Below are positions 1 to 26,942 of a stretch of DNA of 64,000 nt, one piece after another. Made by a program: the position numbers and the translations under genes. The stretch comes from a virus (Duplodnaviria > Caudoviricetes), in the IMG/VR virus record IMGVR_UViG_3300028805_000048. One strand, given 5' to 3'. The notes beneath the pieces were generated by a model. It ran no database searches. It saw only the letters and a list, made by a program, of their open reading frames with translations, and was not told where the DNA came from. Positions within the stretch are counted from its first letter, which is position 1. Every line of letters starts with the position of its first letter.

Positions 1-2774
1 CTATCATAAGTAATTTTACATTTTGTAGCACCTGTAATAGCTGTATTAGCATCTACTTTATCAGAATCTAATTCGTTTATTGCATCAACTAGATTGCTTT
101 TTTCTGTCGTAGATAAACTTGATAATGTTCCAATAGCATTTTTATTGGTTGTAATTTGAGCAACACTAGACGATGTAATTCCTGAATTTAAAGCAGCTAA
201 TTGTTCAGCTGTCATTGGTGTTTCATTTACTTCATATTCAACTTTCCAATTAGCTTTATCGTATGTTGTTGAAGATGAAGCATATTTATATCTCCAAGTT
301 CCACCGTCTTGTGTTTCATCTTCTTTGACAACTAGATAATTATTGTTTGTTGGAGCTTCGAATCCAGCATCTATAAATCCTTGTGCGGTTGTTGGAATAT
401 CAGCATATGTATTCCAAGAACCATCAAAAGTAGCAGTATTTGTTTGTATTGATGAGTTAACAAAGTTTTTATCTGCCAGTTGATTAGATGATGAAGCTTG
501 AGCTGGAATTTTACTATTTATAGTTGAAATGTCATTTTTGTTTGTTGTAACTTGATTTACAACTGTTGATGTAACGCCAGAATTTAAAGCATTTTGTTGT
601 GCGGTTGTAGTTAAATCGTTTATAGTTGTTGTATCTGGTAATGCATCTACGTCAGAATATGTAAGAGTGATATCTGTTGTTAAAGCTTTATTGTTTATTT
701 TACGAGATGTAGGAACGTAATCGGCTAAATTATTTTTAACAAAAGCAGTAGATGCAGCTTTTGTTGAGCTATCTGTTTTTGTTTGTGTTGCTACAGTTAC
801 TGTACCAGCTGTTCCAGTAAACGTAGAATTAGCAGGTATTGTTATACCATCTGTGAATGTCTTGATACCAGCAACATTTTCTACTCCAGTATTATGTACA
901 ACTTTAGCATCTTCTGTTGCTATAGCCCTTGTTACATAAGCTGTTGAAGCAGCACTTGTTGAATTATTATTTTCCGCTAATGTTCCAACAACTGGTGTTG
1001 TAGAAAACGTTTTTGTACCAGCTATCGTTTCATTACCGGTCTTATGAACGACATTAGAATCATCTGATTTAGTATTTAACTGATCTTGAATAGATGATGT
1101 AACACCACTTACATAACTTAATTCTGTCGAAGTCACATTTGATACAGCTACTTTACCATCGTTATTTGATATTAAAGCTCTATTGTTTGTCAAATTGTCA
1201 TCTACAATTGTTGTAGCTGCACCAGTTATTGTATCTTGTTTAGTATTTAATCCAGTATCAACATATTTTTTAGAAGTAGCATGTCCACCATTCGTAGGAG
1301 TTTCTGGAACAAATAAATCACCTGTTGAAGTTCTTTGTGGGATTTTATTAGCGACAGCTTCTTTTTGATAAGGTAATGTGGTTTGATTGCCATTATTATC
1401 AGTTCCATAAAGTATATTAGAGGTTGTTACTTTATCTACTTTATTACCTATAGCTTGATTTCTAGCACCGACTGTATCAATTTGAATAGAATCAGATGTG
1501 TTTTCTGTAGGAGTAGGAGCAGTAGCATAACTAGTACCATCTTTTTCTATATATAAACCTAATGTAGAATTAATGATTGTATCATCGGATTTTTTATTAC
1601 TTACATTTAAGATATTTCCTACTGTACCTTGTGTGTTGACTGATGCGTTGTTGCTTGCAAATTCAATACCATTTTTGTCTACAGTTTTATAACCAGAAAA
1701 ATGTTCTGTTGAAGGTGTATCACCGATTCCATAATCTATTGTTTGGAAATTAATTCTATTTTCAGATACACCTGTAGAAAATGTCTTTGTACCTGTAATA
1801 ATTTCATTACCCGCTTTATGAACAACAAGATCATCTTCTGCTTTAGTAGCTATAGCCGCTGTGTTTGCTGCAATGTTTATAGTATTTGTTTCTACTTGTT
1901 CTCTTAAATCTTCAAAATCATCATCTGGTTTAAGTTTAACTGGATAAATAAATGTAAAATCTAAAACATGTTTATATGCATCTGTTGTAAAGTCTGCTAA
2001 TTTAATAATATATTCTTTAGTTGCAGATCCGTTTAGTGAATAATACCAAAAATTTTCACTTTTTACATATTGATGACAATAATCAGTTAAATAAAGATTA
2101 TCAAGATTATCAACATCTTCTAAAAACATTTGTTGCTCTACTTCTTGCATAGAAGTCATATAAAGAGCACGATTATCTGAAGGAAATTGAGGTAATTCTC
2201 TAATAGAAACAGTATTATTTAATGATACTTGGAAAATACTTTGTGGATTATCATTGTCTTCTCTTATACCATCTGGAATTAAAACTTCTATTCCAGGTAA
2301 TACAAAAGCATGATGGCCTACAAAACCTATACCATTAAATATTAAATCATTACCACGTCTAGATTTTGTAAAATATGCAACATCACCAATAATATCTATT
2401 GAACAAAGAGGATATGTAACATGTATATCAGTAGTACCATTTTCATAATATAAAATTTCTTTTGTAGAAGTATTAAACCAAGCATGCTTGGTAATTCCTT
2501 CCATATCATCTGACATTCCAGATACTACATTTTCTTTTAAAACAGGAATAAGCGTTCCATTTGTTCTAGCGAATACAATCCATTGCGTATCTTCACCTGA
2601 AACATCGATTGTAACATGTTTGTCAGCATCAATTGTTATAGTATGATATGTATTTCCACTATCTGTTAAAACGCTTCCACTAACTAAAGTCAAAACGTTA
2701 CTTTCTAATGTCATATTAAGATTTTCTTGAATTTTTATAATAACGTTAGAAATTGTTACATTTTGAGTATCCAA
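1..2774 (-). CDS. Tail fibre protein, partial (runs off the left edge; absent from ORF track)
   Basis: Open frame from TTG at 2774 (ACAGGA upstream) to base 1. Begins MDTQNVTISNVIIK. Thr/Ser/Asn-rich, with three VVH(K/N)xGxExxxGxKTF tail-fibre repeats. Confidence 0.8.
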   Translation of the reverse strand, partial: MDTQNVTISNVIIKIQENLNMTLESNVLTLVSGSVLTDSGNTYHTITIDADKHVTIDVSGEDTQWIVFARTNGTLIPVLKENVVSGMSDDMEGITKHAWFNTSTKEILYYENGTTDIHVTYPLCSIDIIGDVAYFTKSRRGNDLIFNGIGFVGHHAFVLPGIEVLIPDGIREDNDNPQSIFQVSLNNTVSIRELPQFPSDNRALYMTSMQEVEQQMFLEDVDNLDNLYLTDYCHQYVKSENFWYYSLNGSATKEYIIKLADFTTDAYKHVLDFTFIYPVKLKPDDDFEDLREQVETNTINIAANTAAIATKAEDDLVVHKAGNEIITGTKTFSTGVSENRINFQTIDYGIGDTPSTEHFSGYKTVDKNGIEFASNNASVNTQGTVGNILNVSNKKSDDTIINSTLGLYIEKDGTSYATAPTPTENTSDSIQIDTVGARNQAIGNKVDKVTTSNILYGTDNNGNQTTLPYQKEAVANKIPQRTSTGDLFVPETPTNGGHATSKKYVDTGLNTKQDTITGAATTIVDDNLTNNRALISNNDGKVAVSNVTSTELSYVSGVTSSIQDQLNTKSDDSNVVHKTGNETIAGTKTFSTTPVVGTLAENNNSTSAASTAYVTRAIATEDAKVVHNTGVENVAGIKTFTDGITIPANSTFTGTAGTVTVATQTKTDSSTKAASTAFVKNNLADYVPTSRKINNKALTTDITLTYSDVDALPDTTTINDLTTTAQQNALNSGVTSTVVNQVTTNKNDISTINSKIPAQASSSNQLADKNFVNSSIQTNTATFDGSWNTYADIPTTAQGFIDAGFEAPTNNNYLVVKEDETQDGGTWRYKYASSSTTYDKANWKVEYEVNETPMTAEQLAALNSGITSSSVAQITTNKNAIGTLSSLSTTEKSNLVDAINELDSDKVDANTAITGATKCKITYD

Positions 2775-2883
2775 AGTTTTTATCCTGTAATTAAAAATAT
2801 TTAAAATTAATATAAATCAGATTCTTCTTCTGGTATTTTCTTTTCACCATAATTTTCTTGCACATCTTTCATAACATTGCTTA

Positions 2884-3501
2884 TTACCATTCTCCTATTT
2901 TTTTAATGTTTGTTATAGTCCAATTATCATGTTGTGGATCATCAAAACTATCACTTCCCCATGCAAAATCAAAAGAAATGAGAGAAGTCTCTCCTGTATC
3001 CAATTGATTGGTAACTTTTAATTCGTTATTACTATTCAGTACAATATAATTTTTACCTGGTTCCCCATAACCTGATTCATAAGTAAGACTTTGAGATGGT
3101 AGATAGAAAGCAGTTGTTATATATGGAAAACTAGAATTATCTGCACTAAACCATAAATTACCGTAATCATTGCCCATAATAAGAGCAATAGGAGTGTAAA
3201 CAACAATAGTATCTTGTGATACATTTTTAGCTTTTGCTATAATACCTCTAGTTGCTTCGGCAGAAAGAGTTAAACCTCCTAGTGTAGCTCCACTATCATA
3301 TCTTTCCATTCCTTCTCTATAAGTTGTTTCAACCCTCATTAAAGGCTCTTCAACTGATGTTCCATCTTGTATGCTTTCAATAGCTGCAGGAAGATTTGAT
3401 AAGTTTTGTGTAGCTGGTAATGTTCCACCTTTATTAGATATAGCTGTATAAGCTGCTGCTACTTTTGCTTGTGCATTTTGAATTGCGCTTGCTATAGACA
3501 T
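2884..3501 (-). CDS. Tail-associated protein
   Basis: N-terminus MSIASAIQNAQAKVAAAYTAISNKGGTLP resembles N-termini of phage tail appendage proteins; lies within the tail gene block. Confidence 0.55.
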   Translation of the reverse strand: MSIASAIQNAQAKVAAAYTAISNKGGTLPATQNLSNLPAAIESIQDGTSVEEPLMRVETTYREGMERYDSGATLGGLTLSAEATRGIIAKAKNVSQDTIVVYTPIALIMGNDYGNLWFSADNSSFPYITTAFYLPSQSLTYESGYGEPGKNYIVLNSNNELKVTNQLDTGETSLISFDFAWGSDSFDDPQHDNWTITNIKKIGEW

Positions 3502-15844: not shown

Positions 15845-17104
15845 TTATTTTTCAGAATTATTTATTTTCTTATATAACCTACCAATTTTCCATTCATCTC
15901 CGTCTGGAATAGTATATTTAAGTACAGATATTTTACCATTATTAAACCAGTGTTTACCTTTAGCGGCTTTTGACAATTTATTTCTGTATTCAGCAGTACT
16001 TGTAGCCTCTGTTCTTTTTTTATTCCATTCTTTTTTATTTAGCTCATTTGAAAGAAATTTACGTAAACCATCTTTTAGTTTTTGTTTTTCCTCTTTTTTT
16101 GTCATTCTTTCTTTCATTGAATTACTTATTTTTTCTCTATGCTCAGGATTTTTCCATGTTTCTTTTCTACATTTAGATATTTTTTCTCTATATTCTTCGT
16201 TTTTCCATAACTCTTTGGCATTTTTAGATCTTTTTTGTTTTAATTCTTCAGATATTTCATGTGGAATATATGCATCTATTCCTTGTATTCTTAATGTTAA
16301 ATTGTATCCATTTGGTGATAAAGTATTATATTTTTGTATATAAAATATTTCTTTTTCACTTAATTCTTTTTGTGAGCTAGCGTAATCTAATATTTCTCTT
16401 TTTAATATTGAAGTTCCATATTTTTTAACAATGTTTAAAATTAATTTTCCAGAACCATAATAATTATCATTTAATTTATAGCCACGATGCTGCCCGACAT
16501 ATTGTTTATTATGTAATATATCTGTAATTAAATAAATGTATCCAAATTTTCCATTTCCATTCCATATATATGTTCCTTGTCCTTTTTCATCTATTTTATA
16601 ATTCCAACCTTCACGTAACATTATTTTTTCATTATCAGTTCCCTTACCGTCGGTAGTTCCTATTAATTTATCTGGACCAAATTGACGAAGAAGATTATCT
16701 GTTATAAATTTATTATTTTTATACCAGATTTTACTACCTTTTGATACACGTAATAATTTAAAATTTAATTTATCATAAACATCGCCAGTAAAATAATTAT
16801 AATCACAGTATGAAATTATTGAACATGGCTTATAGTTATTTACAAAATAATTAAACATTTTCATTGCTCCTCCGATTATCCTATAATCTGGATGAAAACA
16901 CAACCTCAATAATTCCCATTGATATGTTTTATTATAGCGTGGATATCCAAAAGTCATTACTGCAATTAAAATTGAATTATATATCAAGCCTATATGATAT
17001 ATAGCTGTTACATTTTTTTGCCTATGATATTTATTTAAAAATTCAGATGTATCTTTTTCTGTTAATTCATTAATGATGCACTTTCTAGCGCCTATCTTAA
17101 TCAT
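15845..17104 (-). mobile_element. Free-standing GIY-YIG homing endonuclease with N-terminal GNAT-like domain and NUMOD-like tail
   Basis: GYIYLITDILHNKQYVGQH...YYGSG...E..YI.KYNTLSPNGYNL; N-terminal WELLRLC...IGGA.K domain. Confidence 0.75.
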
Positions 17105-22439: not shown

Positions 22440-24020
22440 TTGGAGATAAAGATGCCAATAATATCAACTAATCAATTTTGGAATTATGTTATAAATGAAC
22501 CATTATCTATAATTGCAAATATAAAAAAATTACTAACCAAACGTTATTATGATTATGATTTAAAAAAAGATATAAATACTATTTATTGGCAAACTGTTTC
22601 TAAATTTATAGATGAAAATGATATCTTATATGAAACGATACGCTTTCCAAGCGGTTTAACAAATTTTATTTTAAAAAATATCAGTGTTGTAATAGAATAT
22701 AAACCTTTTTCACAACACGAGTTTGATGATGAAGAAGTTTTAAATGTTTGTAAAGAAGTTGCAGCAATAAACAAAGACTTTGAAATTCGTGAATATCAAA
22801 TAGAAGGCGCGTTGGCATCACTTAATGATTTTAAAAGTTTAATTTATGCAAGTGTTGGTTCTGGTAAATCATCAATTATGTCTATTGTGTGCAAATGCTT
22901 AATGCAACAAAATGAAAAAATACTCATTTTGAATGGTAATAATATTATTTTAAGTCAGATAGCTGAAAGATTAGAATCCTTTGGAATAACTGATATTTCA
23001 TGGAATCCTAGTAAAGAACCAGATTATACAAAACAAATTGTCATATTAAATATAGCAGGATCAAATTCTAGATTAGACAAACAAGATAAAAAATATATAG
23101 ATTTTTTAAAAAATGATGTAAATACAATAATTTACGATGAAGCACATCACTTACAATCAATAACAGCAATTGAACCAATACTATATACATCACCTGACAA
23201 CTTACATCATTTGATTGGTTATTCAGGAAGTCCATTTAGAGATAAAGACAAGCCATATGATAACCCAGATGATTTTAGAACAATTGCGATTATAGGTGAA
23301 CCAGCATTTACATATGAAATGAAAACAGCAATAAAAGAAGGTAGTATAGCTCAACCTTATGGATATTTTATAAACTATAAGAATAAAGAAGCTTATGTAA
23401 TGCCACAATTTAAAGATAATTATTTTATGCAATACAGAGCAAATATAATATATAATAAAGAAAGAAATAAAGCTGGAATAGAAATGCTAAAGTTTTTAAA
23501 TAAATATAACATAAAAACGTTCGTGTCATTTAATAATACAAAACCAGCGCAAAATCGTATGAAGGAATTGAAACAACAAGGAATAAAATCTTTATTGATA
23601 TGCGGTAACGAAACTCTATATGAATGGGTATCTGGAAAAAGAGGTGGTTTGGTTTTAGAGAAAAGGAAGGGAAGTAAAAAAGAAGTATTAAAAGCGTTAA
23701 CTGAATATAATTATAATATAATTTTTGGTACTTCTGTATTAGATGAAGGTGTAAGTATTGATATTTTTCAAGCGGCTGTTTTATTTTCAGCTGGAAAAAC
23801 AAATATAGCAGGAATCCAAAGACTCGGACGAGCTAGTCGTAAAAGATTAAAAGGAAAAAACGTATCATTCATAATTGACTTTAAAGATGTTGGTGGTAAT
23901 TATATATTTGCATCTCAATATGAAAAACGTAAAAAAATGATGATAGATTCAGGAATTAAAATATTCAACAATGTGATAGATTTTATAAACTTCATAAAAG
24001 AAATAGCAGAAGAAAAATAA
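22440..24020 (+). CDS. Superfamily 2 DNA helicase (UvsW-like)
   Basis: REYQ, VGSGKS, DEAHH, SGSP, LDEGVSI, QRLGRASR. Confidence 0.88.
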   Translation: MEIKMPIISTNQFWNYVINEPLSIIANIKKLLTKRYYDYDLKKDINTIYWQTVSKFIDENDILYETIRFPSGLTNFILKNISVVIEYKPFSQHEFDDEEVLNVCKEVAAINKDFEIREYQIEGALASLNDFKSLIYASVGSGKSSIMSIVCKCLMQQNEKILILNGNNIILSQIAERLESFGITDISWNPSKEPDYTKQIVILNIAGSNSRLDKQDKKYIDFLKNDVNTIIYDEAHHLQSITAIEPILYTSPDNLHHLIGYSGSPFRDKDKPYDNPDDFRTIAIIGEPAFTYEMKTAIKEGSIAQPYGYFINYKNKEAYVMPQFKDNYFMQYRANIIYNKERNKAGIEMLKFLNKYNIKTFVSFNNTKPAQNRMKELKQQGIKSLLICGNETLYEWVSGKRGGLVLEKRKGSKKEVLKALTEYNYNIIFGTSVLDEGVSIDIFQAAVLFSAGKTNIAGIQRLGRASRKRLKGKNVSFIIDFKDVGGNYIFASQYEKRKKMMIDSGIKIFNNVIDFINFIKEIAEEK

Positions 24021-24100: not shown

Positions 24101-25060
24101 ATGGAACAGCAAACACAATCTACTTTTGATGAAGATTTTAATTTGACAGAACAAAAAAAATTTCTTAGTCTATTAATTTATGATCCACAATGGGCATTAC
24201 TTAATGGATTAGAAGTAATACGTCCAGAGTATTTTGATAGTAATTATCTAAAAAATATATGTAAATGGATTAAACAATATGCGAAAAAATATAAAAATAT
24301 ACCAACAAAGTTAGTATTACAACAAAAAGCACAAACATTGATAAATGATAATCAATTATCTACAAAGGAATATTATAGATATCAAGAAATTTTAGATGAG
24401 ATTTTTACATTAGAACAATCTGATGAACTTGAATATTTTAAAGAAAAGGCTATAGAATTTGCAAGAACAGCAACTTGGAAAGCAGCTTTATTTGATGCTA
24501 CGAATACACTAAAAATACATAATTATGAAGAAGCTCTTGCTAAATTTAGAGAAGTTTTAGATCTAGGTTCAGAAAAAGATCTTGGAACAGATTTTAAAGA
24601 GCAAACACCTGATGAATTTTTAAAATTGTTAAATGAAAAATACGATAAAGCGAATATGATTCAGACAGGTATAGAAGGCTGGGATAAAGCTTTAGGAGGT
24701 GGATTTGCTAGAAATAATATACATATCATCGCAGCGTGTTTTTTAGGAAAAACAAAAATAAAAACAAATAAAGGAAAATTGAGTTTTGAAGAATTATCTA
24801 AATATACGAATTATGATGATTTAGAAATATATAGTTTTGATGGATCAAATAAAATTAAAACAAAAATAAAAAATGTTTTTGAAACAAAAAAAGTTAAAAA
24901 ATTAATGTATTTAAAATTTAATAATGGAAAATCTTTACAATGTACACCAGACCATTTATTTGTAATTAAAAATCCAACAAAAAACGATCCTTATATAATA
25001 TATGAAAATGGAATAGCTTATAAGCAGGCTCAATATTTAGGAGAAAATGATGAATTCTGA
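24101..25060 (+). CDS. Replicative helicase (DnaB/gp41) N-half fused to intein N-fragment
   Basis: IQTGIEGWDKALGGG...HIIAA then CFLGKTKI (intein block A, Cys at 24737) and CTPDHLF (block B); ORF ends at YLGENDEF. Confidence 0.88.
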   Translation: MEQQTQSTFDEDFNLTEQKKFLSLLIYDPQWALLNGLEVIRPEYFDSNYLKNICKWIKQYAKKYKNIPTKLVLQQKAQTLINDNQLSTKEYYRYQEILDEIFTLEQSDELEYFKEKAIEFARTATWKAALFDATNTLKIHNYEEALAKFREVLDLGSEKDLGTDFKEQTPDEFLKLLNEKYDKANMIQTGIEGWDKALGGGFARNNIHIIAACFLGKTKIKTNKGKLSFEELSKYTNYDDLEIYSFDGSNKIKTKIKNVFETKKVKKLMYLKFNNGKSLQCTPDHLFVIKNPTKNDPYIIYENGIAYKQAQYLGENDEF

Positions 25061-26915
25061 TACTTTTTGCGGTTATGTATACAAGATAACGAATATACTA
25101 AATAATAAGAGTTATGTCGGACAAAAATTCTCTCCTGTATTTATAGATAAATATTGGGGTAGTGGAGTTTATATTAGAAAAGCTATTAAAAAGTATGGTT
25201 TAGAAAATTTTAAACGTGAAATTTTATGTTGGTGCAAAACAAGAGATGAATTAGATGATCGAGAATTATATTATATAAAACAATATAATACCCTTTCACC
25301 AAATGGGTACAATTTAACATTAAATGTCTTTAAGTCTGGTAGAAAACAGAAACATTCTACTATAACAAAAATGAAAATGAGTCAAACACGATTAAACTAT
25401 TCAGACGAAAAGAAAAAAGAGATTTTAGATAAGTTTCATATGACATGTGAAAATAGAACTGAAGAAGAAAAATTAATTATACATAACAATAGAAGTAAAG
25501 CCATAAGATTTTCAGAAAAATTTCAAAATACTGTACATTCTGAAGAATATAAAGAAAAACAAAGACAAAAATCGATTGTTGTTATGCAGAATCCAGAAAT
25601 TAGAAATAAATTATCTATTACCTCAAAGGAAAATTGGAAAAATGAAGATTATAGAAATATGTGTATAAAAAATTTAAAACATAATGATTCAGAAATACAA
25701 AGTAAGAGGAGTATAAAAGGCAATATTATTAGAAAAACAAATGGATTTGATCAATATAATAAATCAGAAAGAGCTAAAGAGATAAGTAAAAGGAACGCCG
25801 AATATATGAGAGAATTGAAAAATAATATGTCTGAAGAAGAGAAGTATATATGTAGTTTAAAAAGTAAAATTAAAGTTTTATTAAGAAATGAAAAGCTTAA
25901 TAAAGAAGAAATAATGACTTTATTTGAAATCATAAAGAATCATGAACCAACTTATGATTTATATGATTCACCGAAAGACAGACTTTTAAACAAAAAATTT
26001 CCAAAAATAAAATTAGTTAAAAAAGAAATTATAGAACTCGATAAAGAAATACCTGTCTATGATTTAACTGTTGATGGAAATATACCTAATTTTCAATTAG
26101 ATGCTCAAGTTTTTGTACATAACTGTCCAGGAGGGGGCAAATCAAGAATTATGGCTTTTCTTACAAAACAAGCTGTTATGGCTGGAAAGCGTGTAATTTT
26201 TATATCGTGTGAACTTGATGAAACTGAGACCATGGCAAATATAAATTCTTCTATTACTGGTTTAAGTATGTATGATATATTAAAACCTGAAAATAGAGAA
26301 GAATTTATCAAAAGAATAACAAATTTTAAAAATACTTTCGGTGGTAATTTGAAAATCAAATTTTATGGACCAAAAACGGTTAATTGTGATACTATTCATA
26401 ATTACATACGAAAAGTCATGCAAGAAGAAAAAGAAAAATTGAATGGAATAGAATGGAAACCTGATTTTATTGTTGTTGATTATATGGATAATTTATTGCC
26501 GATACAGAAAATGAAAGGTAGTTTATATGAAGACGGTGGTGCTGTTGCTAACGATTTAAAAAATTTAGCAATAAGTTTTGATTGTCCGATTGTTACTGGT
26601 TCACAGCTTGGTAAATTTTCTTGGAATATAAAAGAAGGCGATGTGATAAGTATGGATTCTATTGCTGAATCTGCTGCAAAAGTACATCTTGCCCATTCAA
26701 TGACAACAGTAAATTCAAATCCTGGTGAAAAAGCGTTAGGAAGAGCTCGTTTATTTTTAGCTAAATCACGTTCAGGTAGTGCAAATTCTGTTGTTTGGGT
26801 AGAAAATGATTTACCAAGATGTCGTTTACGAGAAATAGATGAATGGAGTCCAAAAGATGTAGAAAATGAGTTTGGCGCGTTTAGTGTTAAATCAAGTAAC
26901 AATAATCGTAAATAA
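25047..26915 (+). CDS. GIY-YIG endonuclease, intein C-fragment and helicase C-half
   Basis: GYVYKITN...YVGQ; VYDLTV...VFVHN/C (blocks F/G, ending 26123); then CPGGGKS Walker A, FISCE, VVDYMD, TGSQ, AKSR. Confidence 0.88.
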   Translation: MMNSDTFCGYVYKITNILNNKSYVGQKFSPVFIDKYWGSGVYIRKAIKKYGLENFKREILCWCKTRDELDDRELYYIKQYNTLSPNGYNLTLNVFKSGRKQKHSTITKMKMSQTRLNYSDEKKKEILDKFHMTCENRTEEEKLIIHNNRSKAIRFSEKFQNTVHSEEYKEKQRQKSIVVMQNPEIRNKLSITSKENWKNEDYRNMCIKNLKHNDSEIQSKRSIKGNIIRKTNGFDQYNKSERAKEISKRNAEYMRELKNNMSEEEKYICSLKSKIKVLLRNEKLNKEEIMTLFEIIKNHEPTYDLYDSPKDRLLNKKFPKIKLVKKEIIELDKEIPVYDLTVDGNIPNFQLDAQVFVHNCPGGGKSRIMAFLTKQAVMAGKRVIFISCELDETETMANINSSITGLSMYDILKPENREEFIKRITNFKNTFGGNLKIKFYGPKTVNCDTIHNYIRKVMQEEKEKLNGIEWKPDFIVVDYMDNLLPIQKMKGSLYEDGGAVANDLKNLAISFDCPIVTGSQLGKFSWNIKEGDVISMDSIAESAAKVHLAHSMTTVNSNPGEKALGRARLFLAKSRSGSANSVVWVENDLPRCRLREIDEWSPKDVENEFGAFSVKSSNNNRK

Positions 26916-26942
26916 AAACGGGAGTAATAATTTTACTCCCCC
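26916..26942. terminator. Intrinsic terminator hairpin
   Basis: GGGAGTAA/TTACTCCC stem with an A-run on the left (U-tail on the minus strand). Confidence 0.6.

Follow-up and report, generated by a model that had tools for sequence, protein, structure and literature searches.

How is a working replicative helicase made from a phage gene that is broken into two overlapping open reading frames (ORFs), with an endonuclease coding region lying between the two halves of an intein? The question is raised by positions 24101-26915 of a 64,000-nucleotide (nt) stretch of DNA from a large uncultured phage (Duplodnaviria; Caudoviricetes), referred to here as the window. The window lies within a 157-kb IMG/VR virus record, IMGVR_UViG_3300028805_000048, with an estimated completeness of 66%; it is AT-rich (GC content of 28.9%) and carries 17 tRNA genes. 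We consider it probable that a naturally split intein of class 1 interrupts the helicase at its Walker A motif, that the GIY-YIG nuclease of this intein lacks a stop codon of its own and is fused in frame to the C-terminal intein fragment (IntC), and that the locus operates by the mechanism proposed below.

The helicase gene consists of ORF1 (24101..25060; 319 amino acids [aa]) and ORF2 (25047..26915; 622 aa), both on the plus strand. ORF2 is in the +1 frame relative to ORF1 and runs from the GIY-YIG domain through IntC into the C-extein without a stop. The first part of ORF1 is the N-extein (24101..24736), the first 212 aa of a gp41/DnaB-type replicative helicase, which ends in ...NNIHIIAA just ahead of Walker A. 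It is followed by the N-terminal intein fragment (IntN; 24737..25057), 107 aa that begin with Cys1 (CFLGKTKI), include block B (TPDH) and end in ...AQYLGENDEF at the canonical endonuclease-insertion and split point. ORF2 opens with a GIY-YIG catalytic domain (aa 1-100; 25047..25346), which leads into a helical basic region (aa 101-299; 25347..25943). Next come a conserved leader (aa 300-320) and the IntC core (aa 321-359; 26007-26123), which together occupy 25944..26123 and hold blocks F and G (...IPVYDLTVDG...VFVHN). The C-extein (26124..26915) contributes the +1 Cys, the remainder of Walker A (CPGGGKS), a RecA-like helicase core (263 aa in all) and the stop codon. All parts thus share one strand and one locus, with the endonuclease coding region between the intein halves.

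An earlier note, made from the sequence alone, had described ORF1 as ending in a 107-aa IntN (24737-25057), which the ORF coordinates, Cys1 and block B bear out. The order that it gave for ORF2 (GIY-YIG nuclease, helical region, IntC ending in ...VFVHN, and CPGGGKS) was recovered by Pfam and by reading of the sequence. Given the recurrence of both the fused C-half and the end point of the N-half in relatives, we judge that the layout is far beyond chance expectation.

Are the two fragments parts of one intein? The Cys codon at 24737 (TGT) directly follows ...HIIAA, and Cys1 is present in all six N-halves, as in block A of class-1 inteins. Block B has the TxxH form, with an invariant His; the window has TPDH, and the relatives have T(P/L)(D/E)H. 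In blocks F and G, PVYD...VHN is invariant in six relatives, and the +1 residue is Cys in five of them and Ser in one. The Intein_splicing profile of Pfam (PF14890) matched IntN over profile positions 9-74 (24.8 bits, E = 2e-5) and IntC over positions 124-155 (16.9 bits). Both scores are below the 35.8-bit cutoff, as would be expected of intein halves; L038, a homologue with a single frame that is described below, scored 66 bits against the intein splicing profile. IntN shares 36% identity with the corresponding part of the L038 cis intein and gave weak sequence matches in the PDB to the Pho RadA, gp41-1 and NrdJ-1 inteins.

The net charges of the fragments are opposite, +6 for IntN and -3 for the IntC core. 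In an AlphaFold2 (AF2) model of ORF2 that was computed without IntN, IntC had a predicted local distance difference test (pLDDT) score of 31-37, i.e., it was disordered without its partner. The intein halves reside in separate ORFs in the window and in five relatives, and removal of the intein leaves a colinear host protein, as is the case for split inteins. The single uninterrupted frame of a canonical cis intein is absent, being broken by the TGA at 25058-25060 and by the frame change, both of which are kept in the relatives.

The exteins are two halves of one helicase. The N-extein matched PHROG 19, a family of DnaB-like helicases, over aa 12-212, an assignment that identity to the relative P0005 also backs, and the C-extein matched PF03796 (DnaB_C) with 47.8 bits. 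The top Foldseek matches of the C-extein core were T4 gp41 (8gao, E = 4e-12) and DnaB structures; only the nuclease and helicase domains were confident in the AF2 model of ORF2. The predicted spliced helicase has 475 aa (212 + 263), and intein-free relatives have 467-483 aa. Trans-splicing would restore the native Walker A region of the protein. The earlier note had proposed that HIIAA-CPGGGKS would be rebuilt at this site, and relatives P0005 and P0007 indeed carry HIIAACPGGGKS as one uninterrupted run.

The exteins of the window are nearly identical to those of P0005 (100% for the N-part and 99.2% for the C-part). The split intein is absent from P0005 itself (832 aa, on an ENA contig of 10,419 bp), whose AACPGGGK is continuous. 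Five codons downstream (GGGK/S), P0005 instead has a contiguous intein of the LAGLIDADG type, with a class-3-like Trp/Cys/Thr signature. These near-identical phages thus have alternative inteins 15 bp apart, and each intein probably disrupts the target site of the other. Neighboring inteins with which this pair may be compared have been described (PMC10643990).

The same pair bears on the possibility that the locus is a decaying remnant that no longer splices, a broken helicase in a phage that depends on another one. The adjoining ORF at 22440-24020 does encode another helicase, of a different superfamily. Against decay, lineages with about 50% identity have all kept the splicing residues and both extein halves, an allele that carries another intein (P0005) matches the window at 99-100% identity in its exteins, and neither a second DnaB/gp41-type gene nor a further intein was seen in the 157-kb record. 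We regard a remnant as very improbable.

Relatives were sought among 5.8 billion proteins with ORF1 and ORF2 as queries. Three fused C-halves (P0002, P0003, and P0004; 617-618 aa) aligned over 98-99% of the length with 52-57% identity, and in all of them the parts come in the same order with no intervening stop. Five separate N-halves (P0060, P0061, and P0063-65; 317-321 aa) were 49-61% identical to ORF1. All five have tails of the type ...AQYL.E.DEF and stop at a common position in the alignment. This position coincides with the end of the N4 block, where inteins are canonically split or take up an endonuclease. The two-ORF layout was found in at least three further lineages, the exteins of which have 46-60% identity; there, the pairing of N- and C-halves rests on contigs of identical size: 78942, 40518, 32282, and 4830 bp for P0065/P0004, 51589 and 4730 bp for P0063/P0003, and 7387 bp for P0060/P0006. 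The layout was therefore assembled on at least seven further contigs, and each window protein was recorded on two contigs.

Elsewhere, relatives were few. The GenBank phage collection yielded only two short matches, both confined to the nuclease; IMG/VR contained no close relative beyond the record of the window itself, and scans of it returned generic matches to intein blocks F and G in other genes. In the representative library, only the P0004 match extends through IntC. No longer proteins bearing the nuclease-IntC module were found, which is weak evidence.

These counts bear directly on whether the break is real. A sequencing or assembly indel could artificially split a cis intein, and in a metagenomic assembly this is a possibility a priori. 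However, the same break point occurs in five diverged N-halves and on at least seven other contigs, and an ATG and a Shine-Dalgarno sequence are placed exactly at the junction. We therefore rejected an indel artifact, the probability of which we consider negligible, and the earlier view that the gene is genuinely in two pieces stands.

How, then, is the C-half translated? The AGGAG Shine-Dalgarno sequence of ORF2 (25039..25043, plus strand) was found 3 nt and 6 nt upstream of two ATGs, at 25047 and 25050, that lie inside the last ORF1 codons and the TGA. Counted from the first ATG, the two ORFs overlap by 14 nt (25047..25060; ATGATGAATTCTGA), and counted from the second, by 11 nt. The earlier note had reported the 14-nt overlap in another frame and a ribosome-binding site (RBS) for ORF2, both of which are evident on reading the sequence. 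The overlap is likely a translational-coupling junction. The protein ends in the P0065/P0004 lineage (..DDEF followed by a stop, and MNFK..) appear compatible with an ATG-inside-stop overlap like that of the window.

No RBS-sequestering hairpin was detected at the junction: the fold of 24985-25085 had a z score of +1.4, and 188 of 200 shuffled sequences folded at least as well. The junction RNA is thus less structured than the shuffled controls, which suits efficient initiation. A promoter scan gave fewer matches than shuffled sequence, and no terminator was found between ORF1 and ORF2. A GC-rich hairpin directly 3' of the ORF2 stop (26920..26940) is accompanied by a T-run on the minus strand only.

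The +1 offset of the two frames admits a different route to the product, a programmed +1 ribosomal frameshift at ...GAA TTC TGA that would fuse ORF1 and ORF2 into one cis-splicing precursor like L038. A stop at the shift site could pause ribosomes, the N-halves end in Phe or Leu codons, and L038 demonstrates that a fully in-frame homologue exists. After a +1 slip, however, the tRNA-Phe on UUC would face UCU and be unable to re-pair. The AGGAG is well spaced for the ATGs but lies 11 nt from the codon at which the shift would occur; ORF2 starts with a Met near the GIY motif in every relative, and a stimulatory structure is absent from the junction. A frameshift is therefore highly unlikely, and separate initiation of ORF2 remains the preferred reading.

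Within ORF2, translation of the C-half most likely begins at the start codon of the nuclease, because all three known deletions are in frame and no Met directly upstream of IntC is conserved among the relatives. In P0015 (379 aa), the first ~26 residues of the nuclease are joined directly to the end of the arm; P0229 (533 aa), which clusters with P0004 at 90% identity, is missing 85 aa of the arm; and P0006 (395 aa) is without the catalytic domain and reads in frame into IntC. These proteins are three independent deletion derivatives, each still in frame, and they resemble stages of nuclease decay constrained to keep the frame. An internal start at the Met near 25914 (Met290), which the earlier note had put forward for testing, was rejected, as it has no Shine-Dalgarno sequence and the Met is absent from the relatives. 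If the nuclease ORF holds the only conserved start of the C-half, a frameshift or nonsense mutation there would kill the helicase, so that the selfish gene would be protected from decay.

The GIY-YIG domain passed the cutoffs of two Pfam profiles (PF01541, 29.8 bits with a cutoff of 22.6; PF19835, 32.3 bits with a cutoff of 25), and its pLDDT was 86-94 over aa 11-80. The catalytic domain of I-TevI (1LN0) was a weak match. The GYVY, SYVG, and NGYN motifs and the Glu in (R/K/G)E are conserved in four full-length alleles. PHROG 314, annotated as "homing endonuclease," aligned over ORF2 aa 9-290 (E = 4e-28), and because it covers this span, the first ~300 aa of ORF2 would amount to a complete phage homing endonuclease. 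Together with the lack of an intervening stop, this alignment supports the earlier description of a nuclease of about 320 aa fused in frame ahead of IntC. The GIY-YIG domains of the fused relatives are 60-66% identical, and their C-exteins are 54-60% identical. Judging from this comparison and from the span of PHROG 314, the fused nuclease is probably under constraint.

The helical basic region has a net charge of +15, repeated motifs of the S-x-E-x-K and W-K-N-E-x-Y-R types and a pLDDT of 65-83, and it forms an extended C-terminal arm like those of free-standing phage homing endonucleases. Covered by PHROG 314, it is the putative DNA-binding arm of the nuclease. Similar repeats were found in free-standing GIY-YIG relatives and in HNH-intein relatives. 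A Pfam scan of the ORF2 arm gave no match to NUMOD3; relatives do carry NUMOD3.

A second GIY-YIG domain is encoded elsewhere in the window. The 419-aa protein at 15845-17104 (minus strand), located among structural genes, has a Mom-family-like N-terminal domain (a weak match, below the Pfam cutoff) fused to a GIY-YIG domain that is 50% identical to the intein-associated one, and contains similar W-K-N-x-E-Y-R repeats. It is a resident paralogue and a possible source of the intein nuclease.

We propose the following sequence of events, in which translational coupling, trans-splicing, cleavage, and homing are all inferred. Both ORFs would be carried on one transcript. ORF1 would yield the 319-aa N-extein-IntN protein, and ribosomes would initiate ORF2 at the ATGs in the last ORF1 codons with the help of AGGAG, probably by coupled termination and reinitiation. 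The product would be one 622-aa chain comprising the nuclease, the DNA-binding arm, IntC, and the C-extein. The basic IntN and the acidic IntC would associate and splice in trans, and the resulting helicase of 475 aa would have the native ...HIIAA-CPGGGKS... junction. The by-products, IntN and nuclease-IntC, would stay together as the two-chain equivalent of a nuclease-bearing intein. The nuclease would then cut the intein-free helicase alleles of coinfecting relatives, and the whole 1387-nt cassette would spread.

Is the element distributed as expected of a mobile one? In a maximum-likelihood tree that we built from 31 C-exteins, alleles with an intein are scattered, each beside intein-free alleles, and the well-supported branches force at least four gains or losses. 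P0002 grouped with the intein-free L034 and L035 (support of 100/99), P0003 with L036 (95/97), and the window allele with P0005 and P0007. The 1387-nt cassette has a GC content of 20-25%, and that of the exteins is 27.5-31.8%. In alleles without the intein, the +1 position is mostly Pro, and in a few it is Cys, Ser, Ala, or Lys. Identity among the relatives is 60-66% in the GIY-YIG domain, 38-48% in the arm, 52-75% in IntN, and 42-60% in the exteins.

Several observations weigh against parts of this account. Divergence in the intein and nuclease parts is similar to that in the exteins, indicating that the element is old and that loss may explain as much as homing does; ancient vertical inheritance followed by repeated losses, and not homing that is still under way, could have left the alleles scattered. 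In the nuclease, the Arg equivalent to R27 of I-TevI gave no confident alignment. Finally, Met254 and Met261 in the arm are conserved in relatives, and an AAGGA is found ~11 nt upstream of the first, so that a shorter C-half from an arm-internal start is possible as an additional product.

The stronger form of this last point is that the working C-half comes mainly from Met254 (25806) or Met261 (25827), the full chain being a minor product. Both residues are conserved in P0002, P0003, P0004, and P0006, and the AAGGA precedes 25806. Its spacing is poor for a Shine-Dalgarno sequence, though, and the two Met may be merely structural residues. P0015 is without this region and retains only the N-terminal start of the nuclease. 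Dependence on an internal start would also be expected to permit out-of-frame decay of the nuclease, yet all three deletions are in frame. We consider this alternative unlikely and retain the nuclease's own start as the main one.

Three other proteins show the same modules in other combinations. In the first, L038 (a human-gut metagenome contig, 2-2029), the P-loop of a DnaB-like helicase, the same kind of site as in the window, contains a GIY-YIG intein that is in frame throughout. The alignment of L038 to ORF2 is colinear over 581 columns (E = 6e-23), starting in the GIY-YIG domain and passing through IntC to reach the extein; the IntN, GIY-YIG domain with helical arm, and IntC of L038 are all homologous to those of the window. 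In contrast to the window, L038 has one continuous frame, its intein is inserted three residues further along (APPG/CGKS), and the helicase is only about 26% identical. The AF2 model of the L038 cis intein had a mean pLDDT of 54.7 and was not used. The second, L039:745-2664, is the corresponding mini-intein allele. In L038, the helicase is interrupted once more after ...ESARKVH by an insert of ~1.3 kb (2030-3304) with two ORFs (184 and 135 aa), and it resumes at 3305 (MSADIVITIGR...); this insert could be a further free-standing element or an intron.

The third, P0082 (948 aa, on a contig of 134,610 bp), consists of a terminase-like N-half and an IntN fused in frame to a GIY-YIG domain and NUMOD3, followed by a stop. 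Its nuclease belongs to the same Seg-like GIY-YIG subfamily as that of the window (47% identity) and is likewise in frame with one split-intein half. It differs in being the mirror image, with the nuclease on IntN rather than IntC, and in its host gene; it is known from the N-half alone. P0082 has an additional LAGLIDADG intein in its Walker A.

The metagenome contigs L043, L045, L047, L056, L061, and L082 carry contiguous inteins in genes for gyrase B/topoisomerase, DNA polymerase, and other proteins. The nuclease of these inteins is of the HNH type, and behind it come a helical repeat arm and an IntC similar to those of ORF2; L061 has two such inteins. The similarity points to a DNA-binding arm and IntC that are common to nuclease heads of different kinds.

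How such an arrangement arose bears on a long-standing question, the origin of homing-endonuclease domains in inteins. In step IIIa of the fractured-gene model of Dassa 2009 (PMC2677866), it was proposed that a nuclease gene located in a split intein could come in frame on losing its flanks. The window offers a natural, conserved example of a nuclease gene that would have lost its 3' flank and no other, and together with the mirror-image and fully fused forms it would make the pathway testable on real sequences. Either direction, the fusion of a free-standing gene or the breaking of a cis intein, fits the data.

The broader reading, to which we give an even chance, is that GIY-YIG nucleases become intein domains and that all the steps are extant, with the nuclease joined to IntC only (the window), to IntN only (P0082), in frame with both (L038), and lost again (L039). 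These would be the first GIY-YIG inteins and natural cases of step IIIa, and in the window the nuclease would have captured the sole start of an essential helicase half, a form of addiction. If this is true, only in-frame deletions can remove the nuclease, and each helicase subunit comes at the price of one nuclease molecule, in contrast to other phage homing endonucleases, which are usually tightly repressed. An essential replication protein would then be tied to a selfish nuclease at translation initiation, a link that may account for the persistence of an open nuclease frame over sequence divergence of roughly 50%. For applications, the locus supplies a candidate new Cys1/Cys+1 split-intein pair (107 + ~39 aa), the IntC of which naturally bears a 320-aa N-terminal cargo, and a candidate new GIY-YIG homing specificity.

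How does the locus compare with known systems? Canonical bifunctional inteins contain a nested homing endonuclease of the LAGLIDADG or HNH type, as in PI-SceI. The excised product of the window would likewise join splicing and nuclease modules, with the nuclease between blocks B/N4 and F. The canonical inteins are, however, single polypeptides from a single ORF, whereas the chain encoded by the window is broken between IntN and the nuclease.

The fractured genes of Dassa 2009 (PMC2677866) include those for gp41, NrdA/J, IMPDH, DnaE, and others, with a free-standing GIY-YIG or Vsr-like ORF between the split-intein halves. The window shares with them a gp41-type helicase as a phage replication gene, a GIY-YIG nuclease, the confinement of a split gene and the endonuclease coding region between its halves to one strand of one locus, and a break at the canonical endonuclease-insertion point. 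The charge pattern also agrees, as gp41-1 and gp41-8 have a basic IntN and an acidic IntC. The differences lie in the organization of the ORFs, of which the published loci have three and the window two. Upstream of their nuclease gene is a spacer of 27-51 nt, usually with an RBS-sequestering hairpin, whereas the window has a 14-nt overlap and no hairpin. Their nuclease has its own stop, and its 3' end overlaps, by 6-69 bp and out of frame, an IntC ORF that is initiated separately from its own Met; in the window and in P0002, P0003, and P0004, the nuclease reads straight into IntC. The insertion site is Walker A in the window, as opposed to position 356 of P-SSM2 gp41 for gp41-1 to gp41-7. Thus, the contrast that the earlier note drew with published fractured genes, which usually have a free-standing nuclease ORF, matches their description.

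A 2006 survey (PMC1564403) reported that GIY-YIG enzymes were not found in inteins, and the authors of PMC2677866 stated that GIY-YIG and Vsr-like nucleases were unknown in them. An in-frame GIY-YIG nuclease is not among the cases in a 2025 preprint on noncanonical intein nucleases. Our literature searches, which included the phrase "GIY-YIG intein" and its variants, returned no publication that describes a contiguous intein with a GIY-YIG nuclease in it.

The AceL NrdHF split intein (PMC7891396) resembles the window in being phage-like and metagenomic and in having a GIY-YIG homing endonuclease at the split site. Its nuclease is encoded by a separate intervening gene, it is a class-3 intein, and its host protein is the ribonucleotide reductase beta subunit, whereas the intein of the window is of class 1 (Cys1) and has its nuclease fused to IntC. 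Taken at the level of sequence, the layout of the window is an intermediate form between fractured genes and canonical nuclease-bearing inteins.

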